DNA of 38,216 bases from contig DHFM01000052.1 in assembly GCA_002400405.1 (NCBI GenBank), forward strand, positions 1-38,216, given 5' to 3'. Shown piece by piece: positions 27,881 through 36,913 of this stretch (the stretch's first letter is position 1; each line of letters starts with the position of its first letter). The notes below the pieces were generated by a model. That model saw only the letters and a list, made by a program, of their open reading frames with translations. It ran no database searches and was not told where the DNA came from. The position numbers were made by a program, and so were the translations under genes. Origin of the DNA: Candidatus Moranbacteria bacterium UBA4824. Lineage in GTDB: Bacteria > Patescibacteriota > Minisyncoccia > Moranbacterales > UBA2206.

Positions 27881-29074
27881 TTATTTTATAATTTTTGTTA
27901 CCACTCCGGCGCCAACAGTCTTTCCACCTTCTCGAATAGCAAATCGCATTCCTTCTTCCATAGCTACTGGAGCACCTAATTTAACTCCAAAACTCACTGT
28001 ATCTCCCGGCATAACCATTTCAGTTCCTTCTGGAAGAATCACTTCTCCTGTCACATCAGTTGTTCGAACATAGAATTGAGGTTTGTAGCCTTTGAAAAAT
28101 GGAGTGTGTCTTCCGCCTTCTTCCTTGTTTAGGATATACACTTCACCATCGAATTCAGTGTGTGGAGTAATTGATCCTGGTTTAGCCAAAACTTGACCTC
28201 GTTCCACATCTTCTTTTTTAGTTCCGCGAAGCAATACTCCGGCGTTGTCTCCCGCTTGTCCGCTATCAAGAGATTTGTTAAACATTTCAATTCCCGTAAC
28301 AATAGTTTTTTGTGTTGGTCTGATTCCCACAATTTCCACTTCGGTGTTAACATTGATTGTGCCTCTTTCAATTCTTCCTGTCACCACTGTTCCACGACCT
28401 TCAATTGAGAAAATGTCTTCAATCGGCATAAGAAAATCTTTTTCTGTTTCTCGCACAGGTTGTGGAATTTTTTCATCCAAAGCAGCCATAAGATCAATCA
28501 CTGGCTTAGCCGCTTCTTCTTCAGCTGATTTTGCTTCAAGTGCTTTTAGGGCTGATCCACGGATAACCTTAGCATTGTCTCCATCAAATTCATATTTTGT
28601 AAGCAGTTCACGAACTTCCGCCTCCACTAAATCAACCAATTCAGGGTCGTCCACCATATCAACTTTATTCAAAAATACCACAATTTCTGGAACACCCACT
28701 TGTTTTGCAAGAAGAATGTGTTCTCGAGTTTGTGGCATAGGGCCGTCAGTGGCAGCTACCACCAATATTGCACCGTCCATTTGAGCGGCACCTGTAATCA
28801 TGTTTTTGATATAGTCAGCATGTCCTGGGCAGTCAACATGAGCATAATGTCTTTTTTCTGATTCATATTCACAATGAGCAGTAGCAATGGTGATTCCACG
28901 TTCCTTTTCTTCCGGAGCTTTGTCAATTTCGTCAATTCCTTTTTCCTTAGCTTTTCCAAGGAAAGCCAGCACATGAAGAATAGCCGCTGTCAAAGTGGTT
29001 TTGCCATGGTCAACGTGGCCAATAGTTCCAACGTTAACATGAGGTTTAGTTCTTTCAAATTTTTCTGCTGCCAT
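27881..29074 (-). CDS. tuf: elongation factor Tu
   Basis: 397 aa. Has [18 protein letters not shown] and NKVD. Confidence 0.98.
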
Positions 29075-29180
29075 AGTTTTAATTTTGCCGTGACTTTTGC
29101 GCCCCCCGCTAGAGCGGAAAATTCCGGCTCAAACTCCGGATTCGCAATTAGTCGCGATTTTTTATTAAGTTATATTATTT

Positions 29181-29264
29181 ATCCCCCACCACTTTTTAGC
29201 TTTTTTCTAAATAAATTTACTTTATTTTAGCCCACCTAGCTTAAGTAAAAAAGTGGTGGGGGAT
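29181..29264. repeat. 84-bp element with a perfect 17-bp inverted repeat in the tuf upstream region
   Basis: atcccccaccacttttt (29181-29197) pairs with aaaaagtggtgggggat (29248-29264). Confidence 0.7.
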
Positions 29265-29336
29265 GAACAAAATTTAGTTTAATACACTTTTATTATTTTG
29301 GCAAGTCCCCCGCATAATTATTGTTGTGGATAAGAC

Positions 29337-29615
29337 CTACTGCGTCTTTTCATAGCGTATTTCCTCACTTTTCGTTTCGCTTATTTCGGAAAGATCCATA
29401 TCTTCAATTTTCTCTTCTTCTTGCATCACTTTCCAACTTGCTATATCATTGTTGATTTTATCAACCAATTCTTGTTTTGTCAAGCCTTCTATGCCTTCTT
29501 TCTTTATTTTCTTGAATTCCGCCAGACTTAGAATCACATAATACTGTTCTTGGTCTTTTATCACCGCTTTTCCTCCCAAGAGATCAAGCGCTTCTTTGAG
29601 TTTTTTATCCAACAT
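29337..29615 (-). CDS. small acidic protein, Phd/YefM-antitoxin-like N-terminus (tentative)
   Basis: 92 aa. GKAVIKDQEQYYVILSLAEFKKI resembles the Phd/YefM beta-strand core, and the C-terminus is an acidic tail. No toxin partner is adjacent. Confidence 0.4.
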   Translation of the reverse strand: MLDKKLKEALDLLGGKAVIKDQEQYYVILSLAEFKKIKKEGIEGLTKQELVDKINNDIASWKVMQEEEKIEDMDLSEISETKSEEIRYEKTQ

Positions 29616-29640
29616 AAACTTTGAATTATTTTATATTTTT

Positions 29641-29669
29641 ATGCTAACTTATTTGAAATTGGATGTCAA
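29641..29669 (-). promoter_or_regulatory. candidate promoter for ORF 29337-29615 (TTGACA-17-TAGCAT)
   Basis: On the minus strand, ttgaca (+29664-29669) is followed by a 17-nt spacer and tagcat (+29641-29646), about 25 nt upstream of the ATG. Confidence 0.4.
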
Positions 29670-29768
29670 TGGAAAATTTACATAAGTCTGGCAAAAATAA
29701 ACATTACACAAGCTGTTATGTAACATACTACTTACATTGATACTTACGCCTAAAATAAAATTGTTTTC

Positions 29769-30938
29769 TTATCGATTCCCCTTTGCTCTATTGTGCGTCT
29801 TACACAGCATTTCACAATTTTTTACTGAAGTTGCACCGCCTTTACTCCAAGCAGTTACATGGTCGGCGTCCATTTCATCTAGCTTCCAAATTTTGCTTTT
29901 GTTAGCATCGTGTCCAATAGCGCAATGTGAACAATTTGATTTGCCTTTTTTCTCGGCCTTGGCAGTTTGCACGGCGTAAACTGATTTTTTAGTTGCATCA
30001 TCGAAAATTCGAACCTCAAGTAATTTTGTGTTGATGGATCCACCAAGAATATATTCAAAAATACCTTTTCGATTTTTGATATACGGATCACCGTAAAGTT
30101 TTTTCACTTCTGCCGACACTTTGGCAGGATCATAAACTTTCTTGTGATACTGCTCATATAATCGACCCCACTCAAGGCCTTTCATTTCACTCTCAATATC
30201 AGTAAATACACTAGATACCCAATCAATCACACTATTAAAATAGGTTTTTAATTCAGTAATATTTTTATCATTGCGATGACTGCTCATATAATCACCAACA
30301 TTTCCACGACTGACCCAATTAAGCGCGCATTCTAAAAATTCTTGCCGATTGGCACTACCTGATACATACGTGCTCCATTTTTGAATATTGGCGTTTTGAC
30401 TATTGCTAAATTCTTCTTTACTAAGGGTTACGAACGGACCAGAATAAACCGCATTGAGAAGTTCTTGATTATTAAGTGGCACACCGGCAATGTTAATCGT
30501 CCGAAACCATTCCTTTATTTCACTTTCCGTGCCTTCGCATTCATAAATGAGAAGTTTAGTTTTCAAAATTTTATCTTGTTTATCTTTCGCGATACCGCTA
30601 AAATATTGCTCCATACCATTTTCATCTTTGATGGCAAATTTATCAGTCACAAACCGTCCAAGACTGGTGATTCTCTGTTGTCCGTCCAAAACTTCGAAAT
30701 TATCTTTACTAACTTTATTGAAATAAATCAAACCTATTGGATAACCTTTGAGGATCGATTCAATAACAGCTATTTCTCTTTTTCCACCATCGGAAGCATA
30801 AATATAGTTGCGTTGATATTCCGGTTGAATGGTTAATTTTCCAGACAAACCAAAAAGTCCTTTGCCTTCAAGCTCGTTATAGACAAATCCTTCACAAATA
30901 TCTTTGACAGTAATGTCGGTTTTTAAAATTGTTTTCAT
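29769..30938 (-). CDS. DUF262 (ParB-like/GmrSD N-terminal domain) plus C-terminal HNH nuclease fusion protein
   Basis: 389 aa. Has [21 protein letters not shown] and [19 protein letters not shown] (DUF262 motifs). The C-terminal CSHC...[12 protein letters not shown]...N...[11 protein letters not shown] is HNH. Confidence 0.85.
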
Positions 30939-30939
30939 A

Positions 30940-31953
30940 TTATTTTTTTGGTTTATTATTTTTAACTTTTTTCTCTAAAATTTTAATGCTTTCCAAATAA
31001 TCTTTTTCTACCAATGAAAAAGTTTTTGCCTGATATTTTTTATATTCATTTTCAGCCTTATCCATAGCCCTCTCATGACTCACACTTCCCGCATCCAGCA
31101 AGAGCTGTTCTCCCGTGGATGTAAGGATGCTATCAAGATGTTTCACCCAATCCAACATTTTCATGGGAATCTCACGCTCTGCCTGACGCTCGGCAAAATC
31201 AAGATACCCCGAAACGATTTGTCCGAGAGCACGCAATTCTTTTTCGTTGAGATAATTCTTGGCAATTTTTGCATCTTTAAGTTGTGGCGTTGAACTAGAA
31301 AATGTTGCAAGCCCCATAAAATCTTTTTTTGCGTCAGCACGATTATAAATAACTTCTGCGGCAGTTTGTCCGTGTACCGCGTAATGAACTTTATTTTGTA
31401 CTTTTTTAAAAAACTCTACTGATGTTTTTGTGTTTGCGTCATAATCAATACTGGTTGCATAGATATCTAAAATTTGGCGATAGAAAACTTTTTCACTGGC
31501 ACGAATGTCGCGAATACGAGTAAGAAGCTCTTTCCAATATCCACCACCTCCTAAATTTTTTAATCGCTCATCATCCATGACAAAACCTTTGATGATATAT
31601 TCTTTGAGCCGTGCTGTTGCCCATTGGCGAAATTTTGTACCTTGTACTGATTTCACACGATAACCGACAGAAATAATAACCTCTAGATTATAAAAATTGG
31701 TCGGTTTGGTAGAAAAATCGGAATTTCCGATTTTTCTCACAGATTTAGCTTCATTTAGCTCTTTTTCGACATAAATATTCAAAATATGCTCGTTAATCGT
31801 AGAACGGCTCTTGTTGAAAAGTTTTGATATTTGATCAATAGTAAGCCATACCGTCTCACCCTCAACACGCACTTCAATATTCGGCGCCCCATCCGCGCCT
31901 TCATAGATAATTATTTCACCGGAATTATGGTTATTTTTTATATTATTTTTCAT
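30940..31953 (-). CDS. RhuM-family protein (virulence protein RhuM-like)
   Basis: 337 aa. Has [72 protein letters not shown] and [21 protein letters not shown]. This matches the remembered RhuM consensus closely. Confidence 0.85.
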
Positions 31954-32551
31954 AGTTTATAATATCAGGCAAATCTTCTAATTTTTTGCCATTATATTCG
32001 AAATAACTAGCTCCTCGATATGATCCAGTTAATCTTCCTTTTTGTTCAAATATTTTATTAGTAAGCGGTGATAATTTCCAAACTTGCCCATCGTATTCAA
32101 CCTCTCGTTCTCCGCAAACTTTTGCGATTATACTTTTATCTTGAGTAAACGCAATTTCATCACCATTCCTTAATCCTTTTTTGTAAAAACTAAATAAGCC
32201 ACTTTTCTTTCTAATCTCCGAAACCTTATCAAATTCTTTTTCTTTATTTATGTTTTCTGGATAAATAATTTTTCCATCAAAAGAAAGAAGTAATTGCTTA
32301 ACTAATTCATAATCCAAAGCAAATAATTCGCTATCACCAACTCTATGCTTACTAAAAATTTCTTTCAAAAGATTTTCCTTGTCAGAATAATCATCAAGTT
32401 CAATAGCAAAAAATCTTTTTAATCCTGATACATTGGAATATCCATTTGCTTCTAAAAATCGCATTCTTTCAGAATAATTTTTAGTGCCAGTTTGACCGAT
32501 TTTTATCAATCCAGAAACTGCCGTTGTCATTATGTAGATAATTCCTTTCAT
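31943..32551 (-). CDS. T5orf172/MUG113-type GIY-YIG-like domain protein with an uncharacterised C-terminal domain
   Basis: 202 aa. Has GIIYIM...LIKIGQT...SERMRFL...SELFAL, covering the GIY-YIG-like Tyr, Arg and Glu positions. It starts 1 nt after the methyltransferase stop and overlaps the RhuM start by 11 nt. Confidence 0.7.
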   Translation of the reverse strand: MKGIIYIMTTAVSGLIKIGQTGTKNYSERMRFLEANGYSNVSGLKRFFAIELDDYSDKENLLKEIFSKHRVGDSELFALDYELVKQLLLSFDGKIIYPENINKEKEFDKVSEIRKKSGLFSFYKKGLRNGDEIAFTQDKSIIAKVCGEREVEYDGQVWKLSPLTNKIFEQKGRLTGSYRGASYFEYNGKKLEDLPDIINYEK

Positions 32552-32552
32552 A

Positions 32553-33650
32553 TTATTTTTTCTTATGTCTAATTAAAATCCTTTGATAAATTTTTCTGCT
32601 ATTTGAAATGGGATTATTGTAAACTTTGAAATTCCCAATCTTAAACTTATCAGGCACTTGTCCGTTTGCTGTACCACCAATAATTTCAAATTGCTCAGGA
32701 GAGTATTTATCAAGAAAACTCAATGGCACACCCATTACATCAAAATAATCGCTTGGTATAGAATCGGTAAATGGCACTTCTATCGCATTATAATTATCAT
32801 ATTTTTCATACAATTTTTTACCCTTAATTTCTTTGTGTTTGCTGTATTTTAAATTTTCTTCCATTGTCATAAGTGGTAATGGCTGATGACGACGACCATG
32901 ATCCAAATTAGTAAACCAACAACAATTTCTAAATTTCACTAAACCAGTTTCGGGCATATAGACCCCCTCTCCATATTCTTTAGCAAAAGGCGTTGAAAAA
33001 AAGGCATTACCAGCGTGAAAGCCGTTGCCAAGCCACATTTTATTCTCTTTTATCAATGGAAATGTCTCCTTATAAGTAATTGCGTTCATATTTCCGATAA
33101 TCACAAATTGTTTTCCATAATCAAAAAGTTGCTTCACATATTCGCGAAATAAACTAAACGGCGGATTGGTCACCACAATATCGGATTGTTTAAGTAAATC
33201 TACACATTCATCGCTACGAAAATCGCCATTGCCATTGAGAGGTTTAGCTATATTAGCATCATGTCTTAGCAACCATTCAATATCTGCCAACCCAATTGCG
33301 CCATCTAAGTTAAAATCCTTCACTTCATTAATTTCAATCCTAAATGGCTCCTTGCCTTCCGGTTTTAATCCTTCAATCTCAAATAAGGGTAATTGTCCTC
33401 CAGCAATTGGAGAAGGGATATAGCTGGTGGTGATCAGCTTTTTCAATCCAAGCTTGTTGAAATTGAGCACGAAATAGCGAAAGAAATTGCTCTCAAACGG
33501 ATCGTCGCAATTGCAATACACTACCTTCTTTCGGAACACATTTTTGTCATATTCCAAATACGCCTCAATCTCTTTTTGAATATCACCAAACTGGGTATAG
33601 AATTCATCATTCTTTGCTTTTTTTGCGTTTGTAAGGTTGCTGTTTGCCAT
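32553..33650 (-). CDS. N6-adenine DNA methyltransferase, EcoRI-methylase-like family
   Basis: 365 aa. Has NAKKAKNDEFYTQ..DI.KE, VVYCNCDDP.ESNFF.YF and the catalytic DIVVTNPPFSLFREY (NPPF). Confidence 0.85.
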   Translation of the reverse strand: MANSNLTNAKKAKNDEFYTQFGDIQKEIEAYLEYDKNVFRKKVVYCNCDDPFESNFFRYFVLNFNKLGLKKLITTSYIPSPIAGGQLPLFEIEGLKPEGKEPFRIEINEVKDFNLDGAIGLADIEWLLRHDANIAKPLNGNGDFRSDECVDLLKQSDIVVTNPPFSLFREYVKQLFDYGKQFVIIGNMNAITYKETFPLIKENKMWLGNGFHAGNAFFSTPFAKEYGEGVYMPETGLVKFRNCCWFTNLDHGRRHQPLPLMTMEENLKYSKHKEIKGKKLYEKYDNYNAIEVPFTDSIPSDYFDVMGVPLSFLDKYSPEQFEIIGGTANGQVPDKFKIGNFKVYNNPISNSRKIYQRILIRHKKK

Positions 33651-33785
33651 AAAACTACTTATTTAAATCATAACCTTGCTTGATTAAAAAAACTGATCCA
33701 AAATTTTTTCATATTCCCATACTACCACCATCCCCCCAACAATTCAAGCCACAAAAAAACTAACTTCAACCTATTTTTCACAATT

Positions 33786-34664
33786 TCATTTCAACTTTCT
33801 CGCAGATTTTCTCTTTTCTTTTTTCTTATTATCCACACCCTTAAGCATTTTTTTATTTTCTGATTTTATTCTTCTTTCAACCTTTTTCACATCTTCTTCG
33901 GCTGGCAATATTTCCGGATAAATTTCTTTTTCTGCAAGAAGATTGCGCACACTCCTATTATTTTTTACATGCTCGGAAGTAATGGATTGCTCTCCTTGTA
34001 TATGGGTGTCACGCTTTAGTGTAAAATTTGTAATCTCATTGGCGAAATCCTTGGCTTTGATGGTTATAGCTGGCAGAAAATCCGCCAACACTCGACTATC
34101 TTTGATTCCAAGTTTCTTTTTCATATCTTGCGTCGTATTCCCGCCGAAAAGAGCTTGATCGCCCCTACTTCTAATGCGTGCAAAACCCATACCGTCAACA
34201 CCTCTTTCATAAATAATTCCTGATAATTCTTTTTCTGAATTGGTAAGTTTTTCACGAAAAGTTAGCCTTTCTATTTCAGCTATTCTTTTTTCAATAAGTT
34301 CTTGCTTTCTTGTTTGGACAGCAAAATATGCCATCGCAAAAGCAATCTCTTCCTTCCTTGGATCGCCATTTTGTGCAATCAAATAACATGCGTGCCGAGT
34401 GAGTGCAATATCGTCGATTTCCCGAGATGCACCCTTGCCGGCAGTTATCATCTTTCCGACGTCGGCAAATTGATCATCCACTTTCAAACCACTGTTTTCA
34501 CAAGCTATTTTGGCCTTTTCTATAACTTTTTGAAAATTTTTCCACTGATCATATCCAAGTAAAACTTGCAAATCTCGAGCAAACCAAAACTCCGGACCAT
34601 CATCTGCTTTCTGTGTATAATCATTAAAATTTTTGTGAAGTTTTTGTATGATTTCATGTTTCAT
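33786..34664 (-). CDS. dinD: DNA-damage-inducible protein D (DinD)-like protein
   Basis: 292 aa. Has FWFARDLQ.LLGY..W.NF..VI.KAK.AC..SG, LTR.ACYLIAQNGDPRKEEIAFA..YFA.QTRKQE and a basic C-terminal tail. Confidence 0.75.
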   Translation of the reverse strand: MKHEIIQKLHKNFNDYTQKADDGPEFWFARDLQVLLGYDQWKNFQKVIEKAKIACENSGLKVDDQFADVGKMITAGKGASREIDDIALTRHACYLIAQNGDPRKEEIAFAMAYFAVQTRKQELIEKRIAEIERLTFREKLTNSEKELSGIIYERGVDGMGFARIRSRGDQALFGGNTTQDMKKKLGIKDSRVLADFLPAITIKAKDFANEITNFTLKRDTHIQGEQSITSEHVKNNRSVRNLLAEKEIYPEILPAEEDVKKVERRIKSENKKMLKGVDNKKKEKRKSARKLK

Positions 34665-34697
34665 ATATTTTTATTTTTTAATATTACTTATAATGAT

Positions 34698-34725
34698 ATT
34701 ATAACACTACATATTTTTTCGTCAA
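34698..34725 (-). promoter_or_regulatory. near-consensus promoter with extended -10 (TTGACG-16-TGtTATAAT) for the dinD-like gene
   Basis: On the minus strand, ttgacg (+34720-34725) is followed by a 16-nt spacer and tgt tataat (+34698-34706), about 35 nt upstream of the ATG at 34664. Confidence 0.65.
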
Positions 34726-34738
34726 ACCCTCCGCCCAC

Positions 34739-34766
34739 AAAAAAGACGAGGCAGTGCCTCGTCTCT
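34739..34766 (-). terminator. intrinsic terminator after fusA
   Basis: On the minus strand: agacgagg / loop cactg / cctcgtct, followed by tttttt. Confidence 0.8.
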
Positions 34767-34784
34767 ACGGAATTTAAATTTATT

Positions 34785-34819
34785 GCATGCTACATGCTTT
34801 ATGCTTCATGTTTCATGAT
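34785..34819. repeat. CATGAAAC-family repeat (copy F3) directly after the fusA stop
   Basis: gcatgctacatgctttatgcttcatgtttcatgat. Shares catgtttcatg and atgctacat blocks with 9419-9453 and 13845-13906. Confidence 0.55.
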
Positions 34820-34822
34820 TTA

Positions 34823-36913
34823 CTATTTCTTATCCCCACCAATAATTCCTTCCGCCACATTCTTCGGCACTTCGGCGTAGTGGGAAAATTCCATCACATA
34901 GTTGGCGCGACCTTGAGTCATTGAGCGAAGTTGAGTAGCATAACCAAACATTGACGAAAGTGGAGCCTCGGCGTCGATTTCTTTTACTCGCGCGTTGCCT
35001 TCACCGCGATCATTCATTTCTTTGATGATTCCTCGTTTAGAGTTCAAATCCCCTACCACGTCACCCATAAAATTTTCTGGAGTCGTGACTACTACTTTCA
35101 TAATCGGTTCCATGATAATTGGATTAGCCCGACGAGAAGCTTCCTTGAAAGCCATTGAGCCGGCGATTCTAAAAGCCGCTTCAGAGGAGTCAACATCATG
35201 GAAAGATCCATCATACACAGTCGCCTTGATGTCAACCATTGGATACCCAGCCAAAACTCCGTTATCCATTGCTTCCTTGATTCCCTTGCCAATCGGTGCG
35301 ATATATTCTTGCGGAATAGCCCCACCTTTGATTTCATCCACAAATTCAAATCCTTTGCCAGCTTCTTGTGGTTCCACCTTAATCCAACAATGACCATATT
35401 GTCCACGTCCACCGGATTGTTTGATATATTTTCCTTCAGCTTGGGCATTGGATTTAATTGTTTCGCGATAAGCTACTTGCGGTTGTCCAATATTAGCTTC
35501 CACTTTGAATTCTCTTTTCATTCGATCCACGATAATATCAAGATGCAACTCACCCATGCCGGAAATGATAGTTTGACCAGTTTCTTCATCAGTTCTAATT
35601 TTGAAAGTTGGATCTTCTTCGGCTAATTTTCGCAGAGCCATTCCCATCTTTTCTTGATCGGCTTTGGTTTTTGGTTCTACGGCAATTGAGATAACTGGTT
35701 CTGGAAAAGTTATTTTTTCAAGCAATACTGGTTTTTCCGGATCGCAAAGCGTATCTCCCGTAGTAGTATTTTTCATTCCCACTAAGGCTCCAATCCCGCC
35801 AGTATAAATTTCATCCACTTCTTCTCGATGATTAGCGTGCATACGCAAAATTCTTCCCACTCTTTCTTTTTCTCCTTTGGAAGAATTCAATATATATGAA
35901 CCAGCCTTCAACACTCCGCTATAAACTCGGAAAAAAGTTAGTTGTCCCACAAATGGATCAGTCGCCACCTTGAAAGCCAAAGCAGAAAAAGGAGCATTGT
36001 CGTCATATTTAATGGCGACTTCTTTAGTTTCATCTTCTACTTCAGTAGCTTTAATTGCTGGAACGTCAACCGGTGAAGGTAGATAGTCTACAACTGCATC
36101 CAATACTAATTGCACGCCTTTGTTTCGAAGAGCTGTGCCTGTGAAAACTGGAATAAGAGTCACTTCATTGACACCTTTTCTAAGAGCAGTTTTCAATTCC
36201 ACTTCAGAAATTTCTTCTCCATTTAGAAATTTTTCTGTGAGTATATCATCCGTTTCAGAAATTTTTTCCACCATTTTTTCTCGCCATTCTTTGGATTTAT
36301 CCAACATATCCGCTGGAATTTCTCCTTCATTCACAATCTCTCCCATATCTCCAGAGAAAGTATAGGCTTTCATTTTGATCAAATCTACCACTCCTGAAAA
36401 ATCTCCTCGCTCTCCGATTGGAAGTTGTACTGCGATTGCATTAGGAGTAAGTCGATCCCAAATAGTTTTTAGGGCGTAATAGAAATCTGCGCCTTCTTTG
36501 TCGATCTTATTGATAAAACAAATTCTTGGTACTTTATATTTTTCTGCTTGTCTCCAAACTGTTTCAGATTGTGGTTCCACGCCTTCTTTTCCATCAAAAA
36601 CTACCACACCACCATCAAGAACTCGGAGTGATCGTTCCACTTCCACAGTAAAGTCAACGTGCCCAGGAGTATCGATAATATTAATTTGATGATCTTTCCA
36701 AAAACAAGTCGTCGCGGCGGAAGTAATGGTAATTCCACGTTCTTTTTCTTGTTCCATCCAGTCCATTGTCGCAGCGCCTTCATGCACTTCACCAATTTTG
36801 TGAGTGATGCCGGTATAAAACAAAACACGCTCAGTGGTGGTGGTTTTTCCAGCATCAATATGAGCGATAATTCCGATATTGCGATATTTTTCGATTGGGT
36901 ATTGTCTGGCCAT
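34823..36913 (-). CDS. fusA: elongation factor G
   Basis: 696 aa. Has [26 protein letters not shown] and NKIDK. Confidence 0.98.

Follow-up and report, generated by a model that had tools for sequence, protein, structure and literature searches.

A probable Type II-like methylase-nuclease cassette with lodged accessory genes in a Moranbacteria genome

Do tightly packed defence genes form one system, or a smaller restriction unit in which other genes have lodged? The question is raised by four intact, co-directional open reading frames (ORFs) on the minus strand of Candidatus Moranbacteria bacterium UBA4824, at 29769-33650 of a stretch of 38,216 nucleotides (nt) that was analysed as a whole (assembly GCA_002400405.1, contig DHFM01000052.1, positions 1 to 38,216; hereafter the window) and read from its ORF list and translations. 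The genes encode an EcoRI-family methylase (M), a T5orf172 protein, a RhuM protein and a DUF262-HNH nuclease (R), and an earlier note, made from the sequence alone, had proposed that they form a composite restriction system. We compared approximately 170 related loci, designated by L-numbers; counts are given for 88 loci with relatives of R and for 83 metagenomic loci with homologues of the T5orf172 protein. We consider it about two-thirds probable that the locus is a Type II-like M-R cassette with two accessory genes lodged inside it and one upstream, and that the M-R junction is a recurrent lodging site. The features concerned are as follows.

33786..34664, minus strand: DinD-type BRO-N gene (PADLOC candidate PDC-S13), 292 amino acids (aa), matched by the NF008573, Bro-N and PDC-S13 profiles
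32553..33650, minus strand: M, predicted EcoRI-family N6-adenine DNA methyltransferase, 365 aa, with PF13651, PADLOC MTase_II and NPPF
32540..32561, unstranded: left copy of a 22-nt direct repeat (AAAAAATAATATGAAA..AATT on the minus strand), spanning the M stop and the T5orf172 start
31943..32551, minus strand: T5orf172 (GIY-YIG-type) gene with a predicted C-terminal RAMA-like domain (PADLOC PDC-S57), 202 aa, first passenger of the M-R slot
30940..31953, minus strand: RhuM-family gene (PADLOC PDC-S05), 337 aa, second passenger of the M-R slot
30927..30948, unstranded: right copy of the 22-nt direct repeat, spanning the RhuM stop and the R start
29769..30938, minus strand: R, nuclease of DUF262 (ParB-like, DGQQR), helical middle and HNH (CCCC zinc), 389 aa, putative restriction partner of M

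Our reading of the four ORFs, their coordinates, the 1-nt gaps and the 11-nt overlap was identical to that of the earlier note, and its domain assignments agree with Pfam (PF13651, PF10544, PF13310, and PF03235 with PF01844). M is joined to the T5orf172 gene at ...RHKKK TAA-T-ATG and RhuM to R at ...KPKK TAA-T-ATG, and the T5orf172 and RhuM frames overlap by 11 nt (ATGAAAAATAA). The module extends beyond these four genes to the DinD-type gene, which is separated from M by a spacer of 135 nt and by no terminator. The combination corresponds, as had been supposed, to no named system.

The methylase and its nuclease partner

M matched the EcoRI_methylase profile PF13651 throughout (E = 3e-126, positions 1-345 of 345) as well as PADLOC MTase_II (E = 7e-104), and its translation contained the NPPF motif; it would, on these matches, be a methyltransferase with intact catalytic motifs, as expected of a Type II restriction-modification (R-M) system. 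M was 43.9% identical to the methylase paired with the annotated EcoRI enzyme of the Escherichia coli plasmid pU90-3. Thus, the family also pairs with the EcoRI enzyme, and so with unrelated nuclease folds, as is usual for Type II systems.

R contained a GmrSD_N domain (PF03235, E = 4e-21) and an HNH domain (PF01844, E = 3e-6). Pfam gave no match to DUF1524 (PF07510), in whose place stands the HNH with a CxxC...CxxxC pattern, a replacement that had been recognised in the earlier note. The PADLOC Type II nuclease profile REase_II (PDLC03418) matched R from end to end (E = 1e-85, positions 4-371 of 372). Across 61 diverse relatives, D85, G86 and R89 of the DGQQR motif (D85-R89) were invariant and Q87 and Q88 nearly so, and residues D359-H360, N374 and H382-N383 together with the four cysteines were invariant or nearly so among homologues; the DGQQR motif and the HNH histidine had been named in the earlier note. 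A profile of diverse R relatives matched the HNH entry 4h9d (2e-6), McrA (6ghc) and the DUF262 domain of BrxU (7p9k, E = 4.5e-4). The HNH and BrxU domains were reached only by this profile, as phmmer of R against the Protein Data Bank (PDB) returned no matches. An AlphaFold model of R, built from a shallow alignment of 35 close homologues, was unusable (mean predicted local distance difference test, pLDDT, of 50) and was kept out of the fold search. R, like the T5orf172 protein discussed below, looks catalytically intact.

We identified an EcoRI-family M upstream of R in 82 of the 88 loci (approximately 93%), directly adjacent in 60. The M/R junction took the form of a stop, 1 nt and ATG in 34 loci and of an ATGA overlap in 19, indicating that the packing seen in the window is more than chance; the tight operon structure proposed in the earlier note is supported. 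R would be the separate nuclease gene, linked to the methylase, that is expected in a Type II system. The earlier note had found no canonical restriction subunit in the locus. The full-length REase_II match, and the near-constant position of R downstream of EcoRI-family methylases, indicate that one is present. A small C-protein-like helix-turn-helix gene was found upstream of M in some loci, among them L006 and L007. The same M-R pair was identified in 41 IMG/VR contigs and in a Flavobacterium phage. Cultured bacteria carry it on plasmids, examples being an Enterococcus faecium plasmid (WP_214330490.1 / WP_214330488.1), pSKB0120-6 of Moraxella osloensis, and plasmids of Pediococcus and Arthrobacter.

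Other arrangements upstream of R were also observed. In L040 (50-2264), a 347-aa protein of unassigned family ends 1 nt before R. In L024 (3405-5620), RhuM and R follow two metabolic genes, and in L001 (5891-9170) an AAA_21 ATPase and a 190-aa gene lie upstream of R. In L152, an HxHxDH-motif protein is followed by T5orf172, a frameshifted RhuM and then R.

Among DUF262 nucleases, GmrSD and BrxU have been characterised as modification-dependent, and SspE has been described as modification-blocked in phosphorothioate systems (PMC12707154). With these enzymes R shares an N-terminal DUF262 domain with an invariant DGQQR, a helical middle and a C-terminal His-Me-finger nuclease. However, its C-terminus is a classical HNH with four cysteines rather than DUF1524, and it is shorter (approximately 390 aa, against approximately 590-750 aa). 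It also differs from them in having a near-constant cognate methylase, and so is probably modification-blocked rather than modification-dependent. R would therefore resemble the GmrSD family in its DUF262 domain and DGQQR motif, and depart from it in lacking DUF1524 and, judged by its context, in having a cognate methylase. Since the R clade is methylase-paired in approximately 93% of loci, it is best read as modification-blocked, as is SspE in phosphorothioate systems, and the antagonism that the earlier note suspected between a DUF262 nuclease and a co-encoded methylase is not supported.

R belongs to a large and strongly conserved family. A protein search returned more than 8000 close relatives, including the nuclease itself at 100% identity, and a genome scan at least 586 carrier loci. 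When clustered at 50% identity, the wider family (E below 1e-30) fell into 463 clusters, and its full-length members were 34-65% identical to the R of the window. The hosts included many Patescibacteria, DPANN archaea, Bacteroidota, Proteobacteria, Chloroflexota, Firmicutes and others. Over 54 full-length pairs, the mean pairwise identity was approximately 82% for R and 64% for M, with nonsynonymous divergence (dN) of 0.11 and 0.30 respectively, and synonymous sites were saturated for both genes alike (synonymous divergence, pS, approximately 0.75). R was 82-83% identical between genomes whose EF-G proteins were only 59-68% identical. The GC content at third codon positions (GC3) of R spanned 0.23-0.74 and tracked the GC content of the host (r = 0.64). 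The saturated synonymous sites and host-tracking GC3 rule out recent spread as the source of this conservation, and indicate long-term purifying selection on R. We searched 1.26 Mb of carrier loci, with no control set, for palindrome avoidance, and found no outlier tied to the system (observed/expected ratios of 0.96 for AATT and 0.84 for GAATTC, the lowest being 0.61 for GAGCTC).

The junction between methylase and nuclease

We identified co-directional cargo between M and R in 22 loci. RhuM occupied this slot in nine loci and a 283-aa BRO-N/PDC-S13 protein did so in five, and two loci held only T5orf172. The remaining cargo included an OLD ATPase-TOPRIM nuclease, PIN_8, the two-gene PD-Lambda-5 (A and B), a HEPN AbiU2 protein with RhuM, DUF2130, a Schlafen/AlbA_2 protein and several unknowns. 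No fewer than ten unrelated gene families make use of the slot. In at least 11 of the 22 loci, the window among them, the first cargo gene starts 1 nt after the M stop, which is the expected start of R, and at the end of the last cargo gene the same A-rich TAA-T-ATG sequence is often found. In the window, the two copies of the 22-nt repeat are identical at 20 of 22 positions, with 14 nt exact, and bracket the 1.6-kb T5orf172-RhuM cargo; the left copy follows the sequence form seen where M adjoins R without cargo. No att-like direct repeats were found around the whole insert, the only such repeat being the 22-nt one at the junctions of the cargo.

One slot contained a defence system nested within another, a complete PD-Lambda-5 (A and the D12-type methylase B) at 7870-10004 of L037.

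The exact quartet was found in none of the approximately 170 related loci other than the window. The closest locus, L089, lies at a different genomic location and has an unrelated 209-aa gene in the position of T5orf172. Its R and RhuM proteins are 97% and 88% identical to those of the window, and its RhuM and R DNA is 93% identical over 2.2 kb, compared with only 78% for the M DNA. The pS of this pair was 0.14 for R and 0.58 for M. Across loci, M and R identities correlated weakly (r = 0.43), which, together with the pS difference, indicates that R and its adjacent cargo move between methylase partners. In L061, whose order is M, truncated R start, RhuM and full R gene, a 16-codon remnant of the R start lies between M and the RhuM cargo. 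The first 16 codons of R are thus duplicated (1250-1303 and 2251-2300), the truncated copy ending in a stop right after M, and this duplication appears to be the footprint of cargo and nuclease having recombined in together. The RhuM cargo copies were 43-88% identical to the RhuM of the window, suggesting separate acquisitions. Taken together, the slot occupancy, the junction repeats, L089 and L061 show the locus to be a mosaic and indicate repeated, independent and recombination-driven loading of one slot.

The passenger proteins and the surroundings of the block

The T5orf172 protein matched PF10544 (E = 5e-6, 27.3 bits against a cut-off of 20). In its N-terminal half, GIIY, K17-G19 (KIG), R29/R31 and E75 were conserved in 37 homologues, bearing out the residues picked out in the earlier note, and Foldseek gave weak matches to Slx1, UvrC and I-TevI. 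The conserved Tyr, Arg and Glu are those expected of a T5orf172/GIY-YIG nuclease, which the protein is predicted to be. The family is approximately 200 aa long, with listed homologues 73-94% identical over essentially their full length. Among the matches returned, which did not include the exact protein of the window, the closest was 92% identical to it. The C-terminal tail of the window protein (...IINYEK) extends past the ...PDIN terminus found in most homologues, and the additional residues coincide with the stretch that overlaps the RhuM start.

The C-terminal domain was modelled confidently by AlphaFold2 (pLDDT approximately 90). Foldseek of this domain returned the C-terminal domain of CcrM (6pbd, probability 1.00, E = 0.02) and MPND-DNA (7ydw, probability 0.96, template modelling score 0.55 to the target), with no match at E of 0.001 or below. 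Pfam hmmscan at E of 10 or below found no RAMA in the C-terminal 85 aa or in the whole protein, and a PDB profile search was empty. On the fold match to the CcrM and MPND DNA-binding domains, we treat the C-terminal half as RAMA-like. T5orf172 is listed among the nuclease domains fused to RAMA (PMC4738411).

The genomic context of T5orf172 also fits the link to a methylase suggested earlier. An adenine methylase directly adjoins it in at least 64 of the 83 metagenomic loci; in ten of the 64, the methylase was recognised by an MmeI_Mtase match that scored 26.6 bits, just under the cut-off of 27. An EcoRI-family M is its neighbour in 34 of the 83, in the order M-T5orf172-R (approximately 21 loci) or T5orf172-M-R (approximately 11), and the R of these loci is often only 26-48% identical to that of the window. 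In at least 30 more loci, a D12, N6_N4, N6_Mtase/HsdM, IIG-type or MmeI-type methylase lies immediately downstream. The protein would thus occur in the context described for RAMA, encoded with N6-adenine methylases or R-M nucleases. As it adjoins methylases of many classes, it is probably an adenine-methylase-associated nuclease and not a one-target homing enzyme. Downstream of one T5orf172 homologue, on a 390-kb contig, approximately 4 kb lack called genes (L095, 3136-7179).

The RhuM protein matched PF13310 (E = 1e-104, 349 bits against a cut-off of 33.7) and, over essentially the full length of the family, PDC-S05 (E = 2e-159, positions 4-329 of 330). An early proposal saw in RhuM a toxin domain of R-M loci (PMC3710099), and one RhuM-domain PDC-S05 gene alone is reported to have reduced the plating of T7 and T5 approximately 1000-fold in E. 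coli (bioRxiv 10.1101/2024.09.26.614923). The DinD-type protein scored above the cut-off of the DinD equivalog NF008573 (352.7 bits against 242), and matched Bro-N (E = 8e-11) and PDC-S13 (E = 3e-114). BLASTP detected no significant similarity between it and the 283-aa BRO-N slot cargo, the two having in common only the BRO-N domain and the PDC-S13 label. The RhuM and DinD-type proteins are best read as autonomous modules.

The genes concerned are all encoded on the minus strand, in a ribosomal-protein region with a GC content of approximately 36%. The fusA and tuf genes normally adjoin in the str operon. In the window, the whole 5.7-kb block is inserted between them (27881-36913 with both genes included), with the following flanking features.

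34823-36913, minus strand: fusA, upstream flank of the inserted block
34734..34771, minus strand: terminator-like hairpin and U-run of fusA, minimum free energy (MFE) -18.1 kcal/mol, z = -3.6 against shuffles; upstream block boundary
34698..34725, minus strand: promoter-like site TTGACG-16-TATAAT with a TG extension, 11/12 consensus matches, upstream of the DinD-type gene
29337..29615, minus strand: 92-aa ORF of unassigned family between the nuclease gene and tuf, with its own promoter-like site at 29669-29641
27881-29074, minus strand: tuf, followed by rpsJ; downstream flank of the inserted block

The fusA hairpin was found by folding and is absent from the list of the terminator and promoter pattern scan. 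In that scan, the promoter-like site at 34698..34725 shares the top score of the region (11/12) with a site at 29483-29455, and no terminator-like site was found between it and the end of the nuclease gene; by its consensus match, it is a candidate promoter for all five genes. The 92-aa ORF had no match in Pfam, PADLOC, NCBIfam or PHROGs. A long stable hairpin was observed at 29172-29273, approximately 100 nt upstream of tuf, with arms including CCCCCACCACTTTTT / AAAAAGTGGTGGGGG (MFE -38.2 kcal/mol, z = -5.1). It had no Rfam match and its motif occurs at no other place in the window, for which Rfam gave no family at threshold. In a Buchananbacteria metagenome-assembled genome (L078, 1-7612), the same M-R pair with a 353-aa ORF lies directly 3' of rpsL-rpsG-fusA, in convergent orientation. 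The site right after fusA may thus be a recurrent insertion point in Patescibacteria, although two cases are only suggestive.

Competing explanations and known systems

The domain content, the M-R synteny, the occupancy of the slot, the mosaicism, the pattern of conservation and the linkage of T5orf172 to methylases are direct observations. For the cleavage specificity, the protection by methylation, the dependence on nucleoside triphosphates (NTPs) and the roles of the T5orf172, RhuM and DinD-type proteins, we infer the following scheme. M would methylate a site on host DNA, and R would cut DNA without this mark via its HNH centre, possibly modulated by NTPs through the ParB-like DGQQR domain, with its translation normally coupled to the gene directly upstream. 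The RhuM and DinD-type proteins would most likely be stand-alone, single-gene defence or toxin-type modules, which the cassette would provide with co-expression and linkage. The T5orf172 protein would most likely be an adenine-methylase-dependent accessory nuclease or reader, with a GIY-YIG-type core and a RAMA-like domain, which travels with adenine methylases of any class. The block would have been assembled by recombination anchored on the highly conserved R gene and the junction sequence. More speculatively, and with the odds against it, the M-R pair could be a mobile carrier of defence genes. The junction would then be a cassette site whose passengers are swapped through R-anchored recombination, expressed by translational coupling, and kept because their loss risks uncoupling R from M, while the T5orf172-RAMA-like protein would be a general N6-methyladenine-reading nuclease serving any adenine methylase.

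Several observations weigh against the reading of the locus as a two-gene cassette with passengers. Chief among them, R was found with no detectable EcoRI-family M nearby in L001, L024, L040 and L152; either these genomes carry M at another place or they tolerate R by itself. The T5orf172-methylase-nuclease trio is frequent (approximately 32 loci), so that T5orf172 may be a working part and not a passenger, and strict translational coupling runs through both passengers, whose expression might therefore be important to R. The RAMA-like assignment of the T5orf172 C-terminal domain comes from fold similarity only. In the literature, we found no biochemically characterised member of this R clade, nor a characterised pair of a DUF262-HNH nuclease and an EcoRI-family methylase, and palindrome avoidance gave no signal of a recognition site.

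It is unlikely, in our view, that the four or five genes constitute one integrated system, in which M marks self, the T5orf172-RAMA and DUF262-HNH proteins cooperate, and RhuM is a dependent sensor or effector. Translational coupling at all junctions of the window, the recurring M-T5orf172-R and T5orf172-M-R orders, and the presence of RhuM, T5orf172 and the same R-M family together in a few other loci (L109 and L152) are consistent with such a system. Yet the gene-neighbourhood survey, in which the quartet is not conserved, speaks against the four-part system of the earlier note: M and R stand alone in 60 of 88 loci, and RhuM and T5orf172 each occur singly in the slot, as do unrelated genes. 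L089 replaces T5orf172 with an unrelated gene while RhuM and R are almost unchanged, the divergence among RhuM cargo copies implies separate acquisitions, and a RhuM-domain gene is able to defend alone.

Two further explanations concern single components. That T5orf172, and perhaps other passengers, are selfish free-standing homing genes in a conserved junction, devoid of a defence role, seems improbable. Phage T5orf172 proteins are documented homing endonucleases beside conserved genes (PMC10448857), a PHROG "homing endonuclease" family matches the T5orf172 protein at E = 1e-8, and its presence is polymorphic at one precise junction, where the 22-nt repeat flanks the cargo. Against this, its closely similar homologues stand beside unrelated methylase classes with no common DNA target, and their identity over essentially the full length fits purifying selection and not the decay cycle of a homing gene. 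The Zn-finger repeats typical of the phage enzymes (CapR/DUF723/DUF4397) had no Pfam match in it at E of 10 or below, its C-terminal half has no cysteine clusters, and its neighbours are methylases instead of phage essential genes. It is very improbable that the DUF262-HNH nuclease is not blocked by the methylase, being instead modification-dependent in the manner of GmrSD or methylase-independent, with M in another role such as regulation. The modification dependence of GmrSD and BrxU and the few methylase-less R copies agree with this proposal; however, M is upstream in approximately 93% of loci and the coupling places it first, the PADLOC Type II profile spans all of R, the nuclease domain is a classical HNH and not DUF1524, and C-protein-like genes lie upstream in some loci.

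Read as an M-R cassette with passengers, the locus can be set beside several known systems. It shares with EcoRI R-M the methylase family (PF13651) and separate M and R genes in one operon. In contrast to EcoRI, a PD-(D/E)XK enzyme, its nuclease is composed of ParB-like DUF262 and HNH, the order is M then R with translational coupling, and the NTP-binding-type domain suggests that R may differ from a simple Type IIP enzyme. Earlier work has placed RhuM-like proteins in loci combining R-M components (PMC3710099), and R-M operons with embedded RhuM, Fic/DOC or PrrC-type genes (PADLOC PDC candidates) likewise hold defence-type genes inside a defence operon. The theme of defence genes embedded in R-M operons is thus known, and the locus is a variant of it, differing in that the embedded genes are hosted by a Type II-like system of just two genes, M and R, and that cargo enters at one precise junction, with a stop, 1 nt and ATG on both sides. 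The T5orf172 protein resembles the RAMA nuclease fusions of Iyer, Zhang and Aravind (PMC4738411) in joining a T5orf172 domain to a CcrM/MPND-type fold and in being encoded beside N6-adenine methylases of many classes, the defining context of RAMA, although here the assignment comes from structure prediction and the Pfam RAMA model had no match. Like the phage homing endonucleases of ICP1 and T5-like phages (PMC10448857), it has an N-terminal T5orf172 domain with a conserved Glu and its gene is packed tightly between conserved genes; unlike them, it is chromosomal, lacks their repeats, and is linked to methylases and not to phage essential genes, with no common target.

The apparent four-gene system is thereby resolved into separately testable pieces, for which the cultured carriers make experiments feasible. 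Three features appear worth following: the M-R slot, which is precise in position and promiscuous in its occupants, the extremely strong conservation of R, and the methylase-following T5orf172-RAMA-like protein. R combines the architecture of a Type IV enzyme with a methylase partner. Its carriers range over bacterial phyla, DPANN archaea, plasmids and phages, and between the genomes compared it has diverged less than EF-G. The T5orf172 protein is a small predicted nuclease that accompanies every class of adenine methylase, and it may be a reader of adenine methylation. The precise exchange junction between M and R could be mined for new defence genes, as has been done with other host systems.

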